Source of the DNA: Clostridia bacterium
Lineage (GTDB): Bacteria; Bacillota; Clostridia; TANB77; CAG-508
Length of the DNA: 64,000 nucleotides
NCBI GenBank assembly: GCA_017536685.1
Contig: JAFXGW010000011.1
Coordinates: 25,958-89,957, forward strand
Direction of reading: 5' to 3'
In this document: positions 1-50,644 of the stretch, one piece after another
Layout of the letters: each line of letters starts with the position of its first letter
How positions within the stretch are numbered: position 1 is the stretch's first letter
The notes under the pieces: generated by a model
Seen by the model: only the letters and a program-made list of their open reading frames with translations
Databases searched by the model: none
What the model was told of the DNA's origin: nothing
Position numbers and translations under genes: made by a program

Positions 1-697
1 AACCATTTCCAAGTAAAACAACTTTATCACCTTTTAAAAATATTTCTGAAATTGTAAATCTTTCATCATCAGTTTTTATCTTTATATTTGAAACAACTTC
101 TAAAGTATCTGCTTTTACTATATGAAGCACTCCATTTAAAACATAATAAATATGTTCTCCATCTGTTTTTACAATATCTGCCTCATCAACATTTTCTACT
201 TGAGTATTAGTTGTAGAATAGTCGTTTTTTGAAGCAGAAGATAAAGCTTCTGTCGCTACCAAATCACTTACTGTATCTCTGTTTGTCTTTGATTCTGCAA
301 CACTTTGTTCTACTTCTAAATTACTTGTTACCCCTTTGTTAATAGCATCATCAAAATAAATTCTGTTATATCCGCTAGAATCTAGTTTTAAAGCTTCCTT
401 TAATTGTTCTATACTTTCAAATCTTGGAAGCTCTGCATTTGCAATTATTATTTCTTCTGTTTTTTCATCTTTAGATTTATCTGCAAATTCTGTGTCAATT
501 GGATTTGAAACTTTATTCATAGAATTAATTCCAACAAAAAATAATACTAATACTGCAGCACAAGTTGATAAATATTTTAAAGCAGAATATTTTTTTGATT
601 TAGCTGCATATTTTGCATTTTCAAAAGCTTTTTCTTTTAGTTCATCGCTTGCATGAATTTGCTCTATTGCTTTTTTATAATTATCTTGATTATTCAT
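1..697 (-). CDS. membrane-anchored putative anti-sigma factor (start present, 3' end beyond window edge)
   Basis: ATG at 695-697 preceded by AAGGAGG. 8-nt overlap with the stop of the upstream ECF sigma gene. Short cytoplasmic N-terminus, one TM helix (CAAVLVLFFVGI), then an extracytoplasmic domain. The frame stays open to position 1. Confidence 0.5.
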   Translation of the reverse strand, partial: MNNQDNYKKAIEQIHASDELKEKAFENAKYAAKSKKYSALKYLSTCAAVLVLFFVGINSMNKVSNPIDTEFADKSKDEKTEEIIIANAELPRFESIEQLKEALKLDSSGYNRIYFDDAINKGVTSNLEVEQSVAESKTNRDTVSDLVATEALSSASKNDYSTTNTQVENVDEADIVKTDGEHIYYVLNGVLHIVKADTLEVVSNIKIKTDDERFTISEIFLKGDKVVLLGNG

Positions 698-1166
698 TCT
701 CAAAACCTCCTTCTAATTCTTGTTTTAAAATTTCTCTTGCTCTATAAAGCCATATTTTAATTGTACCTTCTGGCTTACTCATAAGCTTAGAAATTTCATG
801 CACTTTGTATCCTTCATAGTATAGTAGATAGATTACAGTTCTATAATTTTGAGGTAATGTACAAACTACACCATAAACATCATTTTCTTCTTTAGTTTTA
901 AAAACTATATTTTCATCTAACCTAACTACTTTTTTGTTCCATGCAGATTCTTTTATATTTTTTGTTAAATTTATAGTAACTCTAATAAACCATGCTTTTT
1001 CATGTTCTTCACTTTCAAATTTAGGATTCTTTTCACTAAATCTCATAAATACTTCTTGAAAAATATCTTCAGCTGTTTCAATAGATTTACATCTTGTTAA
1101 AGCAATTCTATAAACTAAGTCTGCATATTCTTCTATTTTTTCTTTTAAATATGTATCTTTTTGCAT
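690..1166 (-). CDS. RNA polymerase ECF-type sigma-70 factor
   Basis: 158 aa. Region-2-like (DLVYRIALTRCKS...EDIFQEVF) and region-4 HTH (YRTVIYLLYYEGYKVHEISKLMSKPEGTIKIWLYRAR). RBS TAGGAGGT upstream. Confidence 0.85.
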   Translation of the reverse strand: MQKDTYLKEKIEEYADLVYRIALTRCKSIETAEDIFQEVFMRFSEKNPKFESEEHEKAWFIRVTINLTKNIKESAWNKKVVRLDENIVFKTKEENDVYGVVCTLPQNYRTVIYLLYYEGYKVHEISKLMSKPEGTIKIWLYRAREILKQELEGGFENE

Positions 1167-1365
1167 TTTAACCTCCTATCTACTAATAATACAAATCAAA
1201 ATGCCATTTGGTTTCAAAAATTTTAAATTTTTTTATAATTTTGCATATTTATTTCTATTTAACATTTAAAATAGTGTAATTCAAATAGATTATATCTTTT
1301 ATTACATTTTATATTAAAAGCAAAAATCGCCGTACAAATAATTTATGTTACGACGATTTTGTACT

Positions 1366-2493
1366 TTATTTATTTTCACTTTCTAATTGTAAATATTCTG
1401 AATTATTAATTTTCATGGCAAAATATGGTTTTTCTTTATTCTCTTCTTTTACAAAAATTACAAAAGGTTTTGTAAAATAGAAAAGTCTTGCATTTGTACT
1501 TGGAGCTGACATTGAATCTGTAATAATTGCAGCTTCACTAAATATTAGCCCACCTTCGCTATTTAAATTAAATTTAATGTTTTGAATAGCTTTTGATATA
1601 TATTCACTATTCGTATTTTTTATTATTTTATTACACAACTCATCATAACTAATATTTACATCAATATCTATACAAGGAATCTTTAACTCATCATAATAAT
1701 TTGAGAATTTCTTATTCCCTTCAAAACTGCTAGATAAATTTAAAAGTTCATTATATAAATTTTCGAAATTATCTTCTTTATCAGTTCTATACAAAATAAC
1801 TTCTTCATTTTCTTTTGTTTTTAATTTAACAGCACACTCATTAGATATAACACCAGTATTATCTACATTTTTAGGATCCCAATATAAAACTTCAACATTA
1901 TCACATAATTTTGCTTCACTATCTTCATCTATACCAAATATTTTTACTTTTTCAGAATTACCATCTTTTCCTGTAAAAATTCCTGGTTTTAAATCATCAA
2001 ATTTTTCTAAAAAAGTAAAATTCTTTTTTAGCATTGAATATATTAAAATTCCATTTGAATTATCTAATTCTTGTCCTTCAAGAATTTTCGCACCATCTTT
2101 TATATTAAATTTTTCTTTTAAATCTTTATCGATTTCATTTTTTAATTTTCCTGATGCTTTTCCTTGTTTTACATAATAGCTATTTTCAGAAAGCATCTCT
2201 TTAGTGAAATTTCTTTGGTTTAATTCGCTTGCAAGTAAACTTTCTGTTTCTTCGAATTCTACTGTTCCACCTGCATAATCCATAAGCTCGTTCCATGCTA
2301 CTTGAAAAGTTCCACACCAAATTGTATCTAAATTACTATTACTAACTGTTTTTGAATATACTTTTGAAGTCTCATATCTTGGCTTTACAAGTTTAAATTT
2401 ATAACCATATTCATTTTTAAACACATACATTCCAACTATTAAAACAGCCAAAAGTATTGCAAATAAATATATTATCAAAAACTTTTTCTTCAT
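1366..2493 (-). CDS. serpin-family protease inhibitor with N-terminal membrane anchor
   Basis: 375 aa. N-terminal TM segment. C-terminus carries a serpin hinge (SEAAIIT) and an s1C/s4B signature (FTKPFVIFVKEENKEKPYFAMKINN, compare alpha1-antitrypsin [26 protein letters not shown]). RBS AGGAGA. Confidence 0.6.
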   Translation of the reverse strand: MKKKFLIIYLFAILLAVLIVGMYVFKNEYGYKFKLVKPRYETSKVYSKTVSNSNLDTIWCGTFQVAWNELMDYAGGTVEFEETESLLASELNQRNFTKEMLSENSYYVKQGKASGKLKNEIDKDLKEKFNIKDGAKILEGQELDNSNGILIYSMLKKNFTFLEKFDDLKPGIFTGKDGNSEKVKIFGIDEDSEAKLCDNVEVLYWDPKNVDNTGVISNECAVKLKTKENEEVILYRTDKEDNFENLYNELLNLSSSFEGNKKFSNYYDELKIPCIDIDVNISYDELCNKIIKNTNSEYISKAIQNIKFNLNSEGGLIFSEAAIITDSMSAPSTNARLFYFTKPFVIFVKEENKEKPYFAMKINNSEYLQLESENK

Positions 2494-2691
2494 AAGTAAT
2501 TCTCCTTATTATAAAAATATAATTACAAATTCTTTATATCATATAGCTCATTTTCATTCAATAATTATTGTCATTTTTCAAAAAAACTTATTTGCCCCGT
2601 CTTTGTTCGTGTGCCAAATTTTATATAATAAAATTTGTGTACAACAATCATGCAAAGCATTTTATTTAATAGAAAAGGAGAACTTTCCTAT

Positions 2692-15415: not shown

Positions 15416-16549
15416 TTATTTTATTCCTTTTTCATCTAGTTTTTGGTATACATTTTGTTTGAATAATGTATATAAAACTGAAGCTGTTGGAAGTCCTAAA
15501 AGCATACCTATTATTCCAAACAAGTCTCCCCCTACAGCAACTGAAACTAATACCCAAATTCCTGGTAATCCAACTGAATTTCCAACTACCTTTGGATAAA
15601 TTAAGTTTCCTTCAATTTGTTGTAATATTAATATGTAAATAATAAATGTAATAACTTTAACAGGTTCTACTGAAAGTATTAGTACAGCACCTATTATAAT
15701 TCCTATAAAAGCACCAACAATCGGAATTAAAGCTGTAACACCTATTAAAACACCTATTGGAACAGCATAAGGAACTTTTAAAATTAACATTCCGATTATA
15801 CTTAAACTACCAAGAATTGTAGCTTCTAAGCATTGTCCAGATATAAATCTTCTAAATATATTTCTTGCTATTCTTCCAATATCTATAATCTTTTCAGCCT
15901 CTTCTTTTTCATTATATGCATATAAAATCTTTTTGGCTTGTCCTTTTAATTTATCTTTACTAGTTAATATGTATGCTGCAAACACAATTGAAACAACTGC
16001 ATTTACTACAGAACCAATTATATTTCCAACAAAAGAAACTGATGTAGATAAAAAGCTTGTTGCTAAGTTTTTAACTTGTTCTTGTAATTCTTTATTGTTT
16101 ATATCTATTCCTTTTATAATTTCATTTATTTGAGGAACATCTTGTGTTATATTAGTTGCGATATTTTTAAGTTCTGCACCATAATATGGTAATTTTTCAA
16201 TTAGTAATGTAATAATGTTAATTATTTCTGGCAATATTAAATTAACAATTAACGTTAAAATAAGTGCAATTACAAGTATTGCTAGAATTAAAGAAACAGT
16301 TCTTATAAAACCTTTTCCTAATTTTTTTCCTTTTTTAGTTTTAAATTTCGATAATTTTTCTTCAAAGAATCCCATTGGTAGATTTAGGATAAATGCAATA
16401 GCAGCTCCTATAACAAAAGGACTTATTATACTTATTATTTTTCCAATAATATCTCCAACAACTTTTACATTTTCTACAATTAAATATCCAAATAAAGCTA
16501 TAAATATAATTTTTGCCCATTTTTTTATTTCTTGTTTTTCTGTATTCAT
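15416..16549 (-). CDS. AI-2E family transporter (PerM/YtvI-like permease)
   Basis: 377 aa. About 8 TM helices. Overall composition and length typical of the AI-2E family. Conserved G-rich C-terminal helices. Confidence 0.7.
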   Translation of the reverse strand: MNTEKQEIKKWAKIIFIALFGYLIVENVKVVGDIIGKIISIISPFVIGAAIAFILNLPMGFFEEKLSKFKTKKGKKLGKGFIRTVSLILAILVIALILTLIVNLILPEIINIITLLIEKLPYYGAELKNIATNITQDVPQINEIIKGIDINNKELQEQVKNLATSFLSTSVSFVGNIIGSVVNAVVSIVFAAYILTSKDKLKGQAKKILYAYNEKEEAEKIIDIGRIARNIFRRFISGQCLEATILGSLSIIGMLILKVPYAVPIGVLIGVTALIPIVGAFIGIIIGAVLILSVEPVKVITFIIYILILQQIEGNLIYPKVVGNSVGLPGIWVLVSVAVGGDLFGIIGMLLGLPTASVLYTLFKQNVYQKLDEKGIK

Positions 16550-16680
16550 AAAATTCTCCTTATTACTTTTTAATTTTTATATCATTGTTTTGTTAATTTT
16601 TTGTGAATTATTAACGTATTATAAATTATATCATATATTTAAAATGTTGTAATCATCTTTTTTGTAAATATACAAGAAAA

Positions 16681-16725
16681 CCTTGCACAGCAGATTACTG
16701 CATTATGCAAGGTTTCTTATTCTTC
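16681..16725 (-). terminator. hairpin terminator at the edge of the GC-rich islet
   Basis: ccttgcataatgcagtaatctgctgtgcaagg on the minus strand, followed by TTTTCTTGT. Confidence 0.45.
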
Positions 16726-16742
16726 ATCTTGAGGATGACCAA

Positions 16743-17648
16743 TCACTTAAGATTTTCGAGTTTTTTCATTGTAGCACAGCATGCCTTTCTGTTGATGTCA
16801 CAGAATACGCCTTTTCTTCCCAGCCGTTTAGCAACAACAGCGGTTGTTCCTCCACCCATAAAAAAGTCTGCAACCGTATCCCCTTCATTACTGCAGGTAG
16901 AGATGATTCTTTCCAACACCGCATCCGGTTTCGGAGTATCGTATACCTCAGCGACATCAGTCCTGGTGTAATCATCCAGCATGCAATCTTCATACCAGAG
17001 ATTTCCAACAGGAACAACAGTGCTGAATCGATATGGCAACCCGTTAATGATTTGCACCTGATTCTTCTTAACCATATCATCAAACTGCTTCTGGCTGATA
17101 AGCCAATGTTTGTTTCTCTTCTCCAGATTGATTTCTTCGCCATTGAAAATTCTGATTTCAGAACGGCCTTCGAGATAGCCGTTTTCAAAAAGTGGAACTA
17201 CTCTTGGAGAAGTTCCGTGCTGTTCTTTGAAAACAAAGTTTCCAGAATCCTTCACGTAGTAAAGGATGATGTCCACTTGAGAATCAAAGTTTGCATAGAA
17301 TCCTCTTTCCGCACTATGCTTTCTGTAGATTCTGTTTCTGAAGTTTCTCTCTCCAAAAATTTCATCCATCAGAATTCGCATATAGGAATCCAGGCGCCAA
17401 TTGCAATGAATGAAAATCGAACCATTGTCTGCTAAGACTCTCTTCATTTCCTCAAAGCGAGGTCTGTACCATTCCATAGCTTCTTTCGGCGAACCAAGGT
17501 TGTCACTGTAATCATCAAACACTTTTCCTGTGTTATAAAGGATGTCACAGTAGATAAGGTTTATGCTACGATCAGGAAGCCTCCGTAAAAGCTCAATGTT
17601 GTCCTCTTGGTAGATTTTTATTCCACCATCTTGATAATATAGGCTCAT
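16743..17648 (-). CDS. beta-class (YhdJ-like) N6-adenine/N4-cytosine DNA methyltransferase, solitary, with variant catalytic motif
   Basis: Start moved to ATG with RBS AAAGGGG, reading MSLYYQ. N-terminal IKIYQEDNIELLRRLPDRSINLIYCDILYNTGKVFD aligns to YhdJ [34 protein letters not shown]. C-terminal SAM motif FFMGGGTTAVVAKRLGRKGVFCDIN. G+C is clearly higher than in the neighbours. Confidence 0.8.
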   Translation of the reverse strand: MSLYYQDGGIKIYQEDNIELLRRLPDRSINLIYCDILYNTGKVFDDYSDNLGSPKEAMEWYRPRFEEMKRVLADNGSIFIHCNWRLDSYMRILMDEIFGERNFRNRIYRKHSAERGFYANFDSQVDIILYYVKDSGNFVFKEQHGTSPRVVPLFENGYLEGRSEIRIFNGEEINLEKRNKHWLISQKQFDDMVKKNQVQIINGLPYRFSTVVPVGNLWYEDCMLDDYTRTDVAEVYDTPKPDAVLERIISTCSNEGDTVADFFMGGGTTAVVAKRLGRKGVFCDINRKACCATMKKLENLK

Positions 17649-17765
17649 ATTATAACCCCTTTCCATATGTGATTGTTTTTATGTTAACTTTTGGTCATTT
17701 TTAGTATACTATATTTTTTCTTGTTTTTCAAGTATTTAGCACTCTTCACTTATTTATTCAAAACA

Positions 17766-17804
17766 TAAAAAATAGGGTATAAAAATTTATACCCTATTTT
17801 TTCT
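17766..17804 (-). terminator. bidirectional rho-independent terminator
   Basis: Perfect 10-bp stem atagggtata/tataccctat with loop aaaatt, flanked by A-run and T-run. Confidence 0.6.
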
Positions 17805-17816
17805 TTTCATTTTTAA

Positions 17817-18899
17817 TTATTTTAAAACATTTTGATTTAATATCAAACTACTATATAAAAATAACACATCTTGATTTTCAAATTCGATAAATCTATCTAA
17901 TATTTCACTTGAAATATATCTTAAATCAATTAAAGTTATTGTTTTATAATTCTCAACTAAAAGTGGTGCAAAACTACTTCCAAAAGAATCTCTAAAAAGT
18001 AATAATTCTTTATCAGTTTTTGCATTTATATTTGTCATTTTGATTAAAGGAGTTGCTCCTGATAAATAAATATCATACTTATCATTTGTCTCTTTTCTGT
18101 CGTAAACTTCTCCTTCTTTTTGAGTTTCAAAGTTATATGTAATAGAATTTTTTATTGTATCATTTGTTAAAATATACATATCATCTGGCTCTACTTTGCT
18201 TGCTATTTGTCCATAGTATGTACCATAAAATTTTCCTACATTTTCTTTTGCATAATCAATATCAGATACAATATCTTGTCCCATACTTGTGCTAATCTTA
18301 TCAGCCACTTTTAAAATATTTTCTTGTCTCCAATGTATATCTGTTTTGTAATAATCTTCTAATTTTAATTCATTCAATATACTTATGTATTCAAACTTGT
18401 TTGAATTATATAAATTGTCTTTCATTATATCTTCTATTTTATTGTAATCCATTAATAAATGTTCATCATTTAAATAATAGTTTTTCTCTGGAATTATTGA
18501 AAAATAAACTTTTTTACCAGTCAAATATTTATCATAAACATTCTTTATTTTTTCTGCATTTTTTCTAACATTTGTTTCACTTAAAGGATACTCCATCTTA
18601 TAAAGAGCACCATCTTTTTCAAACATTTTATTATTATCCTTTTGTCTGAATATGTTTATACTCCAAAATGATTTTACATTTTTTAATAAATCTCTCCCTA
18701 CAAATTGATCTTGTGTATAATCTTCAAACTCCTCTGTCCATTTCCCATTTATTAAATCTTCAGAATTAATTTCAGGAAACTTCGCAAGTTTTCTTCTTTC
18801 TGATATAGAAATATCAGTATCTTTTACAATTAAATTCGTAAAAAATATTCCAAATAAACAAATTATAAAACTAATTGTAATAATCTTATTTTTCATCAA
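17817..18899 (-). CDS. DHHW-family (AlgX/AlgJ-like) extracytoplasmic protein, partner of MBOAT acyltransferase
   Basis: 360 aa. N-terminal TM anchor. DIHW motif (KTDIHWRQ). Encoded immediately downstream of an MBOAT gene, as in DltB/DltD- and AlgI/AlgJ-type pairs. Confidence 0.5.
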   Translation of the reverse strand: MMKNKIITISFIICLFGIFFTNLIVKDTDISISERRKLAKFPEINSEDLINGKWTEEFEDYTQDQFVGRDLLKNVKSFWSINIFRQKDNNKMFEKDGALYKMEYPLSETNVRKNAEKIKNVYDKYLTGKKVYFSIIPEKNYYLNDEHLLMDYNKIEDIMKDNLYNSNKFEYISILNELKLEDYYKTDIHWRQENILKVADKISTSMGQDIVSDIDYAKENVGKFYGTYYGQIASKVEPDDMYILTNDTIKNSITYNFETQKEGEVYDRKETNDKYDIYLSGATPLIKMTNINAKTDKELLLFRDSFGSSFAPLLVENYKTITLIDLRYISSEILDRFIEFENQDVLFLYSSLILNQNVLK

Positions 18900-25768: not shown

Positions 25769-26128
25769 CTAAAAATTTATATATTTTATTATATCACCTA
25801 TTATATAAGAACATAGGTTTAATATTAATGACAGTATGTAAGGATTTATTTTTTTGAATTTCAAATATTTACTATAAATTTTGCCTTCTATAAGTACAGT
25901 AATTATTTCTAAAATAATTACTATTATATTTCTTTGCATTAATCCATACCTTATATTTACAAAAACTGGTAAGCTAACAACTATTGGGTTTGTCATAACA
26001 TTTACAAGTAAAATATTTAATATATCCTTTTTATCTTTCACTTTTAATATAATTGCAAAAATAATTTCAATAACTATAGTAAAAAATAAACAATTAATCA
26101 TTATAAATGGTAAATCATTTATTATCAT
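25769..26128 (-). CDS. small polytopic membrane protein, unknown function
   Basis: 119 aa. Three or four hydrophobic helices. The start overlaps a possible 46-aa upstream ORF. Confidence 0.35.
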   Translation of the reverse strand: MIINDLPFIMINCLFFTIVIEIIFAIILKVKDKKDILNILLVNVMTNPIVVSLPVFVNIRYGLMQRNIIVIILEIITVLIEGKIYSKYLKFKKINPYILSLILNLCSYIIGDIIKYINF

Positions 26129-49150: not shown

Positions 49151-50644
49151 TTATTTATCTAATAATTTATTGTTTGACTTGATTCCCCCAATAATTTGTC
49201 CAGTTATAGCATCTACATAAATATCTATATAATTTATTTTTTCATCTTCAGTTCTATAATGTAACTTCCAACAAATTCTTTCTTCTCCCGATATTGGTGT
49301 TTTTATATAATCCATTTCAGCAAATTCTTCCTTTGTTAATAAATCTAATCGATCATCTTTATAACCAATGTAAGGTAGAAATTTAAAATTAAAATACTCT
49401 TCAAATTCTCCTCGAACTTCTTCTGCAATGCTTATTGCTTTTTCAGCATCAATTTTTAATTTTTTATCACTTTCTACAAACACAGTGCTGCTATTTCCAC
49501 TTTCTTTTGGAATAATGGCTAGTAACAAACTTTCTCTATTATTTTTTTCTCCATCTACTACAAAATTCCATCTCCAAGCTTCATTACTTGCATATTGTTG
49601 TAAATAATTAAGTTTTTCTCCTGTTTTATAAGCAATTACAACAAAATAAGATTCGAAATCTTTTTCTGTTAGTTCTCTTAATCCAGAATAATTTTCTCTA
49701 AATTTATTATAGGTGTCTAAATAATCTATTCCAAATTTTATTATTCCGCTTTCATTTGGTGTTAATTTCAAAAAGTTTAACTCTTCTCCTTGAGCAATTT
49801 CAACATTTTCAATCAGCTGTTCTCCTGGTTTTAAATCAGTTCCTGTTATCGGATTTTCAGCAATTAACTTTCTATGATATATTTCACCAAAAGCCTCATC
49901 CGAAAAATTAACCACATCGAAATCTTCTGGATCTGGTTTTTCAAAAACTCCATCTGGTGCTTGTTTTAAATACTCATACTCAATAATACTTGCAATTTTT
50001 TTATCCTTATCTTTATATTGTGCAGCTACAGTTAGCAAACTTTCTTTATCTACATATATTTTTTTATAGCCACTACCAAATGGATCAATTGCATAACACT
50101 TTTTTCCGTTATATTCTTCTGTTACAACAATTGGATAAAAAAATCTATATTTTATTTCATTTTTTAATTTTGTAAAAATATTATCTGTCTCAAATTCAAT
50201 TTTTCCTAAAGTATATAAATCATAAATGATACCTTTTGTATTATTGAACTCTTCTTCCATCAATCTTTCTTTATTTCTAGTTATACAAGTTAGTTCTTTT
50301 AATCCATTTTCATTTTCGTAATTTGCAATATAAGAATTGCAAAATTCTTCATTTAGAAACTCCCACGAAGTAATTTCTAAAATATTATTTTCTCCATCAC
50401 TTGTACTACATTTGTGCACTGAGGCATTATTATTTCTATAATATTCATCAATTATTATTTGTCCATCACCTATAAATACATCGTTTCTTGTAATTTTTAT
50501 AAAGTAAGGTTCTGATGAAGAAACAAAATCCATTGTAGTTTTTGAAATTTTTGATAAAATTGAATAGTGATAAATTCTTGTTGCTACTATTAAAATAATT
50601 ATTGCCACAAGACATAATATAAGTATCTTCTTAATCTTTTTCAT
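49151..50644 (-). CDS. membrane-anchored secreted protein with C-terminal PepSY-like segment (tandem paralogue B)
   Basis: 497 aa. Same conserved blocks as 47637..49085. Confidence 0.4.
   Translation of the reverse strand: MKKIKKILILCLVAIIILIVATRIYHYSILSKISKTTMDFVSSSEPYFIKITRNDVFIGDGQIIIDEYYRNNNASVHKCSTSDGENNILEITSWEFLNEEFCNSYIANYENENGLKELTCITRNKERLMEEEFNNTKGIIYDLYTLGKIEFETDNIFTKLKNEIKYRFFYPIVVTEEYNGKKCYAIDPFGSGYKKIYVDKESLLTVAAQYKDKDKKIASIIEYEYLKQAPDGVFEKPDPEDFDVVNFSDEAFGEIYHRKLIAENPITGTDLKPGEQLIENVEIAQGEELNFLKLTPNESGIIKFGIDYLDTYNKFRENYSGLRELTEKDFESYFVVIAYKTGEKLNYLQQYASNEAWRWNFVVDGEKNNRESLLLAIIPKESGNSSTVFVESDKKLKIDAEKAISIAEEVRGEFEEYFNFKFLPYIGYKDDRLDLLTKEEFAEMDYIKTPISGEERICWKLHYRTEDEKINYIDIYVDAITGQIIGGIKSNNKLLDK

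Follow-up and report, generated by a model that had tools for sequence, protein, structure and literature searches.

A membrane-tethered serpin-like protein of a Clostridia bacterium and its reduced, divergent family

Is the membrane-anchored protein encoded near one end of a contig segment from a Clostridia bacterium a serpin, and, if it is, what would it do at the cell surface? The segment (the window: 64,000 nucleotides, positions 25,958 to 89,957 of the forward strand of contig JAFXGW010000011.1, GenBank assembly GCA_017536685.1) belongs to the GTDB lineage Bacteria; Bacillota; Clostridia; TANB77; CAG-508, and a sequence-only reading had described its open reading frame (ORF) 1366..2493 as a membrane-anchored bacterial serpin, predicted to be inhibitory; the protein is called copy 1 here, as a second copy lies in the same window. 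The ORF and the quoted motifs are present as described, SEAAIIT at residues 319–325 and FTKPFVIFVKEENKEKPYFAMKINN at residues 340–364. Structure predictions show copy 1 to carry a stripped-down, N-terminally reduced and very divergent member of the serpin fold, about 310 residues long, and on these models the protein is homologous to serpins at the level of the fold. As for its function, a surface protease trap or decoy tethered to the membrane is the reading that we favour, tentatively, as plausible rather than established.

The search against the serpin profile that had been proposed as a check went against a standard family assignment. The profile hidden Markov model PF00079 was the only meaningful Pfam match of copy 1, with 18.0 bits (E 0.0019; residues 289–364 aligned with profile positions 297–369) against a curated gathering score of 27 bits, and copy 1 is thus not a recognisable PF00079 member; an NCBIfam scan of copy 1 revealed no meaningful match, a phmmer search of copy 1 against all PDB sequences revealed no match, and the Pfam scan of copy 2 found no match to PF00079. 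Sub-threshold PF00079 matches were found in 10 of 32 aligned relatives, and one relative (P0017) aligns with profile positions 143–369, from the strand 3A region onwards. A profile of the family, compared with the PDB, matched serpins exclusively (E 0.07–1.4), antichymotrypsin and miropin (5ncs) among them, and did so in register across strand 5 of sheet A (s5A; other strands are named likewise), the loop, s1C, s4B and s5B; an hhalign comparison of this profile with one alpha-1-antitrypsin sequence gave a probability of 29% over the C-terminal 92 columns, the N-terminal half being unmappable. A PROSITE-type serpin signature pattern matched 43 of 266 relatives and 4 of 5,320 shuffled sequences. 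Copy 1 itself, with FYFTKPFVIFV, departs from this pattern at a single position (Thr341 instead of Asp/Asn/Gln), and its orthologues at 72–82% identity do match it. The suggestion that the C-terminal signature mirrors alpha-1-antitrypsin holds locally, with about 48% identity over 25 residues, but does not extend to the whole protein, which stays below the gathering score.

AlphaFold modelling yielded a mean predicted local distance difference test (pLDDT) score of 81.5 for full-length copy 1 and of 85.1 for residues 40–375, with predicted template modelling (pTM) scores of 0.77–0.78. In each of two Foldseek searches of the PDB, matches at E ≤ 1e-3 numbered in the hundreds; the 50 listed per search were serpins without exception (probability 1.0, E 2e-10 to 2.3e-11), including antithrombin, plasminogen activator inhibitor PAI-1, corticosteroid-binding globulin, tengpin, miropin and vaccinia K2. 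Template modelling (TM) scores were 0.36–0.50 for the full-length model and 0.50–0.57 for the domain-only model, at 10–16% identity and root-mean-square deviations (rmsd) of 6–12 Å. The recurrent PF00079 matches, the serpin-only profile and Foldseek matches and the excess of signatures over shuffled controls place the resemblance to serpins beyond chance. One could still argue from the low Pfam and hhalign scores, the high E-values of the profile matches, the silent phmmer search and the TM-scores and rmsd values just given that copy 1 is unrelated to serpins and that its C-terminus resembles theirs by chance or through convergence of a motif on another fold; but every one of the weak sequence matches is a serpin, aligned in register from s5A to s5B, P0017 extends the alignment back to profile position 143, all the listed structural matches in both searches are serpins, and the order of secondary structure elements follows that of serpins from s6B/helix B to s5B. 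This reading is already disfavoured, and we consider it hardly credible.

The elements were mapped by inspection of the lists of secondary structure in the models, and the number of strands in sheet A and the precise hinge register are likewise deduced from these lists. The parts of the ectodomain are as follows.

1402..2331, minus strand: reduced serpin-fold ectodomain, residues 55–364 (pLDDT 85.1, pTM 0.78; Foldseek matches to serpins, TM-scores 0.50–0.57)
Residues 58–74 (TIWCGTFQVAWNELMDYAGG): s6B and helix B, the helix being residues 61–74 (model secondary structure)
Residues 86–93 and 106–112: a short helix and a strand, the sole elements between helix B and helix F (model secondary structure)
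Residues 115–129: a helix whose sequence resembles helix F (model secondary structure)
2011..2049, minus strand: strand 3A, residues 149–161 (GILIYSMLKKNFT), a modelled strand with Y152, K157 and F159 invariant
After strand 3A: strands of sheets C and B, then helices G/H (model secondary structure)
Residues 269–282 and 303–310: s2C with s6A, and s5A, followed by the hinge, the loop, s1C, s4B and s5B (model secondary structure)
1522..1554, minus strand: hinge, residues 314–324 (GGLIFSEAAII), a modelled strand paired with 5A; G314 and S319 invariant, E320 nearly so
1489..1521, minus strand: distal reactive-centre-like loop, residues 325–335 (TDSMSAPSTNA), the most variable segment of the domain, with the lowest model confidence
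1402..1488, minus strand: s1C-s4B-s5B block, residues 336–364 (RLFYFTKPFVIFVKEENKEKPYFAMKINN), the part that matches serpin profiles and aligns with antichymotrypsin and alpha-1-antitrypsin

The strand 3A segment corresponds to the serpin NAIYFKGxW motif. The reduction concerns the N-terminal part. No helix precedes s6B/helix B in the models, so that helix A is lacking, and the stretch from helix B to helix F is about 40 residues long, compared with roughly 80 for alpha-1-antitrypsin; for this reason, the region of helices C and D, strand 2A and helix E appears largely deleted. By inspection of the models, 14 native strands were counted versus 15 in a canonical serpin, sheet A probably being one strand short, and the full set of nine helices (A–I) and a five-stranded native sheet A was not found. 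Structure prediction, the second check that had been proposed, thus bore out a serpin fold with a reactive-centre-like loop, without helix A and with one strand fewer than in a canonical serpin. The identification as a bacterial serpin survives in a narrower form: the fold is recovered by Foldseek and by the family profile, but the score lies below the PF00079 threshold and part of the canonical architecture is gone, and we file copy 1 as a reduced serpin variant rather than as a standard member.

The 182 distinct hinge sequences of the family follow the pattern G-G-x-[LIV]-x-S-E-A-x-[IMVL]-x-[TVMIA], in which the Ser taken as P14 is fixed (in part through the search pattern itself), Glu occupies P13 in 97% and Ala P12 in 88%; the conservation of alternate positions (S, A, I/M/V/L, T/V/M) would be expected of a strand that buries one of its faces. 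Hinge Ser319 and Phe340 of s1C span 22 residues, the family mode being 21–22 (139 of 212 sequences), and alpha-1-antitrypsin has the same spacing. Residues 325–335 have a column entropy of 2.68 bits, compared with a domain mean of 1.69 and with 1.47 and 1.41 in the flanks, and they are the least confident part of the folded domain in both AlphaFold models. By canonical counting from Ser319 as P14, the scissile bond would lie between Ser332 and Thr333 in copy 1, and between Ala and Val in copy 2.

The two models differ in the placement of the hinge. The full-length model contains a short hairpin at residues 314–320 and keeps a short strand 1C; in the domain-only model the hinge strand extends to residue 324 beside 5A, strand 1C is lost and the structure is closest to cleaved and latent serpins, which suggests that the copy 1 sequence is compatible with loop insertion. 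Perhaps the domain is constitutively loop-inserted, latent-like and hyperstable, a structural or adhesive scaffold at the membrane surface with no conformational switch; the domain-only model would fit such a scaffold, as would a conserved hydrophobic residue two positions ahead of the hinge Ser, which makes the buried face longer than in canonical serpins. The predictor is ambivalent, however, given the s1C and partial hairpin of the full-length model, AlphaFold often models true serpins loop-inserted in this way, and a permanently buried strand needs no hypervariable, low-confidence distal loop of conserved length. We therefore rate a constitutive scaffold as improbable.

Two segments precede the ectodomain.

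2419..2481, minus strand: signal-anchor (transmembrane) segment, residues 5–25, following MKKK; hydrophobic, with the N-terminus inside and the domain outside
2332..2418, minus strand: tether from the membrane to the domain, residues 26–54, poorly conserved and with low model confidence

The N-terminus consists of MKKK and a 21-residue hydrophobic stretch in which a cleavage site of the AxA type was not seen; residues 2–29 are modelled as a single helix (pLDDT 80–94), and the tether falls below a pLDDT of 50 at residues 30–53 and has a column entropy of 2.86 bits in the family alignment. The hydrophobic segment aligns with the internal transmembrane segment of anti-sigma-like relatives that bear a cytoplasmic N-terminus, and it occupies the same place ahead of the domain as the transmembrane segment of relatives fused to a sigma factor, which is internal and so cannot be a cleaved signal peptide. 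Because of this correspondence the N-terminus is best read as an uncleaved signal anchor with the domain outside, and the earlier impression of an uncleaved anchor is borne out. Sequence and models together show copy 1 as a predicted type-II membrane protein with four cytoplasmic residues, one transmembrane helix, a tether of about 30 residues and an extracytoplasmic domain. There is no Cys within its first 59 residues, and hence no lipobox for lipoprotein anchoring of the miropin type, unlike in some Gastranaerophilales relatives, where a lipobox-like LAGGC is present.

For copy 1 a serpin-like mode of action is inferred. The variable loop (residues 325–335) would act as bait for an extracytoplasmic protease; once the loop is attacked, the hinge GGLIFSEAAII would insert as an extra strand beside strand 5A, and either the protease would be trapped or the serpin-like protein consumed. 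The standalone form of copy 1, with a terminator of its own and no cytoplasmic domain, would make it a membrane-tethered trap or decoy that protects or regulates the cell envelope, and elastase-like or subtilisin-like enzymes would be best matched to a predicted P1 region made up of small residues (Ala-Pro-Ser|Thr). In relatives that are fused to a sigma factor or resemble anti-sigma factors, attack on the loop would instead be read out as a signal. The fold supports the tethered trap or decoy through the serpin-only Foldseek and profile matches and the recurrent sub-threshold PF00079 matches, and the anatomy of the loop supports it through the conserved hinge, the most variable distal loop and the canonical loop length. 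Gut and oral bacteria are known to produce serpins against host and bacterial proteases, e.g., siropins and miropin (PMC5127057, PMC8201313). The modelled placement of the hinge beside 5A, the correspondence of the anchor with the transmembrane segments of relatives and the terminator hairpin behind the gene also speak for the tethered trap or decoy, in which inhibition by the copy 1 ectodomain is a prediction.

Several observations weigh against a working trap. The PF00079 threshold was reached by none of the relatives scanned (best score 25.2 bits). The reduced N-terminal part, with no helix A and probably with one strand of sheet A and helices D and E gone, may lack the stored strain that powers the serpin mechanism. 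The hinge SEAAIIT had been said to fit the inhibitory P14–P8 consensus; S-E-A-A does fit P14–P11, but the Gly-Gly pair lies three residues upstream of the canonical P15 Gly, P15 itself is not Gly, P10 is Ile/Met/Val/Leu in 97% of the hinges rather than Ala/Gly/Ser, and P9 is variable, the two positions being Ile-Ile in copy 1. The displaced Gly-Gly and the bulky P10 and P9 could retard insertion and turn the protein from an inhibitor into a substrate, and the displaced Gly-Gly and the conserved bulky P10 render the outright prediction of an inhibitory serpin too strong. Among close orthologues the loop evolves no faster than the remainder of the protein. Many relatives come from Gastranaerophilales, which we take to be diderms; if so, the protein would be periplasmic there and beyond the reach of host proteases. 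Finally, no conserved neighbouring protease or other partner was found across the 80 loci described below.

The relatives bring in a second reading of the domain. The family is large: a word-indexed search gave 377 matches, and an exhaustive profile search gave 3,234 clusters (50% identity), of which 868 lie below 1e-30. Relatives are encoded in at least 377 stretches of a collection of species-representative genomes, and the architecture and neighbour counts cover the best 80 of these. The genomes that carry these 80 loci were assembled from gut or faecal metagenomes, and most of them bear the label Clostridia or Gastranaerophilales/Melainabacteria; both NCBI-named members of the family are called "hypothetical protein". 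In 31 of the 80, each of which bears the label Clostridia or that of a clostridial taxon, one protein (about 535 residues) joins regions 2 and 4 of an extracytoplasmic function (ECF) sigma factor, some 15 residues, a transmembrane segment and the serpin-like domain, with no separate Pfam domain detected between sigma region 4 and the transmembrane segment. Six more loci have a separate sigma gene that overlaps the start of a 385–410-residue version with a cytoplasmic N-terminus of about 40–55 residues. A sigma domain was not detected in the remaining 43, where most proteins have 345–360 residues, like the window copies, and a few are longer (up to 502). Fused, split and standalone architectures are interleaved in a rough neighbour-joining tree; neighbours of the fused genes are not conserved, and those of the standalone genes reflect mainly lineage-specific synteny.

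Since the ectodomain is fused to, or in one operon with, an ECF sigma factor in about half of the related species, a sensor role is a serious rival to the tethered trap or decoy, and we hold it to be a real possibility, if a lesser one: the domain would be a non-inhibitory sensor or receptor in which loop cleavage serves purely as a signal, or which binds a ligand or partner, and the standalone copies would be co-receptors, decoys or remnants. The interleaving of the three architectures in the tree fits it, as do the departures of the hinge from the inhibitory consensus, the presumed periplasmic location in Gastranaerophilales, the lack of a conserved neighbouring protease and the fusions of other relatives to protein-binding repeats of the ankyrin or Sel1 kind. 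Non-inhibitory serpins, such as hormone carriers, are well known, and vaccinia K2 is among the structural matches. An operon in ten Gastranaerophilales loci, in which a BlaI/MecI-type repressor gene precedes the serpin-like gene, appears from sequence to be a second, independent link of the domain to transcription control. Copy 1, on the other hand, has just four cytoplasmic residues and could not by itself pass a signal across the membrane; a terminator parts it from the neighbouring sigma gene, which has a beta-propeller anti-sigma partner and shares 25–31% identity with the fused sigma domains; and a conserved hinge beside a hypervariable loop marks a bait loop rather than a ligand pocket. 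A scheme that would unite the two roles has the serpin fold act as a protease-triggered mechanical switch wired to transcription, a bacterial "protease-activated receptor" in which attack on the loop leads to insertion and the tethered ECF sigma factor is released or activated, with the standalone copies as the inhibitor or decoy arm; we regard it as rather doubtful.

Some loci of relatives have features of their own. In the Gastranaerophilales operon (e.g., L058 4223–6035) the genes are separated by gaps of 1 and 12 nt and encode a BlaI/MecI-type repressor (PF03965, E 1e-16), a 123-residue protein without assigned function and, third, a serpin-like protein with a lipobox-like LAGGC signal peptide. 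Other architectures (P0238, P0255, P0223, P0164) include C-terminal ankyrin repeats (985 and 630 residues), an N-terminal Sel1 repeat (788 residues) and a weak match to a bacterial Ig-like domain. At L085 2262–3879 (also L086; proteins P0043–P0108), in a species common to many gut assemblies, a fusion of sigma factor, transmembrane segment and serpin-like domain is split by a one-base insertion (the extra C in GTT-C-GGAAGT) inside a WxGSFQIAWNE motif, giving a 244-residue ORF with the sigma and transmembrane parts and a 292-residue ORF; such a split recurs in dozens of clusters at 90% identity and represents a pseudogene that has become fixed or, alternatively, a site of recoding. At L001 7645–8967 (also L002–L004) the sigma-fused P0025 is followed, 33 nt on, by a 440-residue protein with a signal-peptide-like N-terminus and no Pfam match; an integrase and a Mob relaxase are encoded nearby, and this copy may therefore be on a mobile element.

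The window has a G+C content of about 26%, and nearly all its genes are on the minus strand. The following features belong to copy 1, its neighbour and its paralogue.

1366..2493, minus strand: complete gene of the membrane-anchored serpin-like protein copy 1, 375 amino acids, ATG start, TAA stop at 1366–1368 (from the ORF list)
2502..2507, minus strand: Shine-Dalgarno sequence AAGGAG, 8 nt 5' of the copy 1 ATG (direct sequence reading)
1322..1357, minus strand: terminator-like hairpin with a U-run, beginning 9 nt past the copy 1 stop codon (RNA folding)
690..1166, minus strand: ECF sigma gene, directly downstream of copy 1
44118..45215, minus strand: copy 2, a 365-residue paralogue with the loop SEAAIVTLKSAMVAVEYQPREFIF (tblastn E 1.5e-54, 36% identity to copy 1)

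The hairpin after copy 1 folds with −15.6 kcal/mol (z = −4.4; none of 200 shuffles was as good), and sets the gene apart from the downstream sigma factor operon; a scan for consensus terminators found no match at copy 1, presumably because the hairpin loop exceeds the length that the scan permits. Since hairpin and U-run follow directly on the stop codon, copy 1 is probably monocistronic. A protein 99% identical to copy 1 exists in public data, and the name given to one member of its cluster at 90% identity is "hypothetical protein". The closest genome match in the species-representative collection (74% identity) is in a Candidatus Scatovivens genome, where the order of an acyl-CoA-synthetase-like ORF (574 residues), the serpin-like gene, the sigma gene and a large downstream ORF is kept. 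In the window, the sigma gene is followed by an overlapping gene of a single-pass anti-sigma-like protein with a Beta_propel (PF09826) ectodomain (both within 1..1166, minus strand), which extends past the window end; the order of this pair is kept in the closest genome (L005). The adjacent sigma factor was considered as a partner of copy 1 and rejected, given the intervening terminator, its own anti-sigma partner and its low identity to the fused sigma domains.

Copy 2 has the same architecture of transmembrane anchor and serpin-like domain as copy 1 and a different loop, and the two fall in different deep clades of the neighbour-joining tree. Upstream of copy 2 and of a threonyl-tRNA synthetase-like ORF (thrS, 45327..47084) lie two tandem ORFs on the minus strand (47637..49085 and 49151..50644; 482 and 497 residues), paralogue-like by eye, both hydrophobic in an N-terminal segment and without a significant Pfam match. 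No T-box leader or other Rfam family reached the gathering threshold in 47085..47636, 5' of thrS; a thrS without a T-box leader is unusual for a Firmicute. Elsewhere in the window, at 16000..18000, G+C is locally higher (0.31 versus about 0.26) and GC skew weaker; the region coincides with an ORF (16743..17666, 307 residues) that resembles a DNA methyltransferase by eye, and may be foreign DNA.

How, then, does copy 1 compare with known systems? With canonical serpins (alpha-1-antitrypsin, antichymotrypsin, antithrombin and PAI-1; PF00079) it shares the predicted fold, the strand 3A motif, the Ser-Glu-Ala-Ala hinge and the loop length, and with alpha-1-antitrypsin also the C-terminal FxKPF...KE...PxF block to which the local identity noted above applies. 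It differs from them in its identity of 10–16%, its sub-gathering Pfam score, a domain of about 310 rather than about 370 residues, the missing helix A, the region from helices C/D through strand 2A to helix E cut to about 30 residues, the Gly-Gly displaced by three residues, the bulky P10, a Gln (Gln304) aligned with the shutter His and the N-terminal transmembrane anchor. The interest of the locus rests mainly on what the whole family implies: it shows how far the serpin fold can shrink while hinge, bait loop and C-terminal core persist. If still inhibitory, it would define a minimal serpin, of use to those who study or engineer the mechanism, and would add to the surface of gut anaerobes a layer of protease control that has gone unrecognised. 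The prevailing view of bacterial serpins, that they are few and closely allied to those of animals, is contradicted on both counts by this family, whose thousands of clusters are invisible to Pfam and NCBIfam.

Among bacterial serpins, miropin of Tannerella forsythia (5ncs), reportedly a lipoprotein, and the cellulosomal PinA of Clostridium thermocellum likewise are serpin-fold proteins held at the cell surface; both are full-length and recognised by Pfam, whereas copy 1 is reduced, is anchored by a signal-anchor helix and is a putative inhibitor. PinA is attached as a module of the cellulosome, and surface-held bacterial serpins have been proposed to guard the cell or its exported machinery from proteases (PMC8201313). 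The siropins of Eubacterium siraeum and the Bifidobacterium longum serpin share with copy 1 their origin in the gut, a plausible action against elastase-like enzymes of the host and a small predicted P1 (PMC5127057, PMC8201313), but are secreted, canonical and experimentally inhibitory, and the copy 1 family is far more divergent and occurs also in Gastranaerophilales. A serpin anchored by a transmembrane segment or joined to a sigma factor was not found among the known bacterial surface or gut serpins, no literature linking serpins to sigma or anti-sigma/ECF factors was found, and the ECF classification paper (PMC7826278) does not mention a serpin-type outside domain. RsiV, RsgI, RseA and the C-terminally extended ECF sigma factors have the topology of the relatives of copy 1, with an ECF sigma factor or a short cytoplasmic segment, one transmembrane segment and an outside domain; unlike them, copy 1 is without a cytoplasmic domain, and no recognisable anti-sigma domain stands between sigma factor and transmembrane segment in the fused relatives. 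The architecture of a sigma-fused sensor or anti-sigma protein is thus found in the 31 fused and six split relatives and not in copy 1, and it is the fusion to an ECF sigma factor that makes testable the idea that bacteria sense proteases through a serpin-type conformational change.

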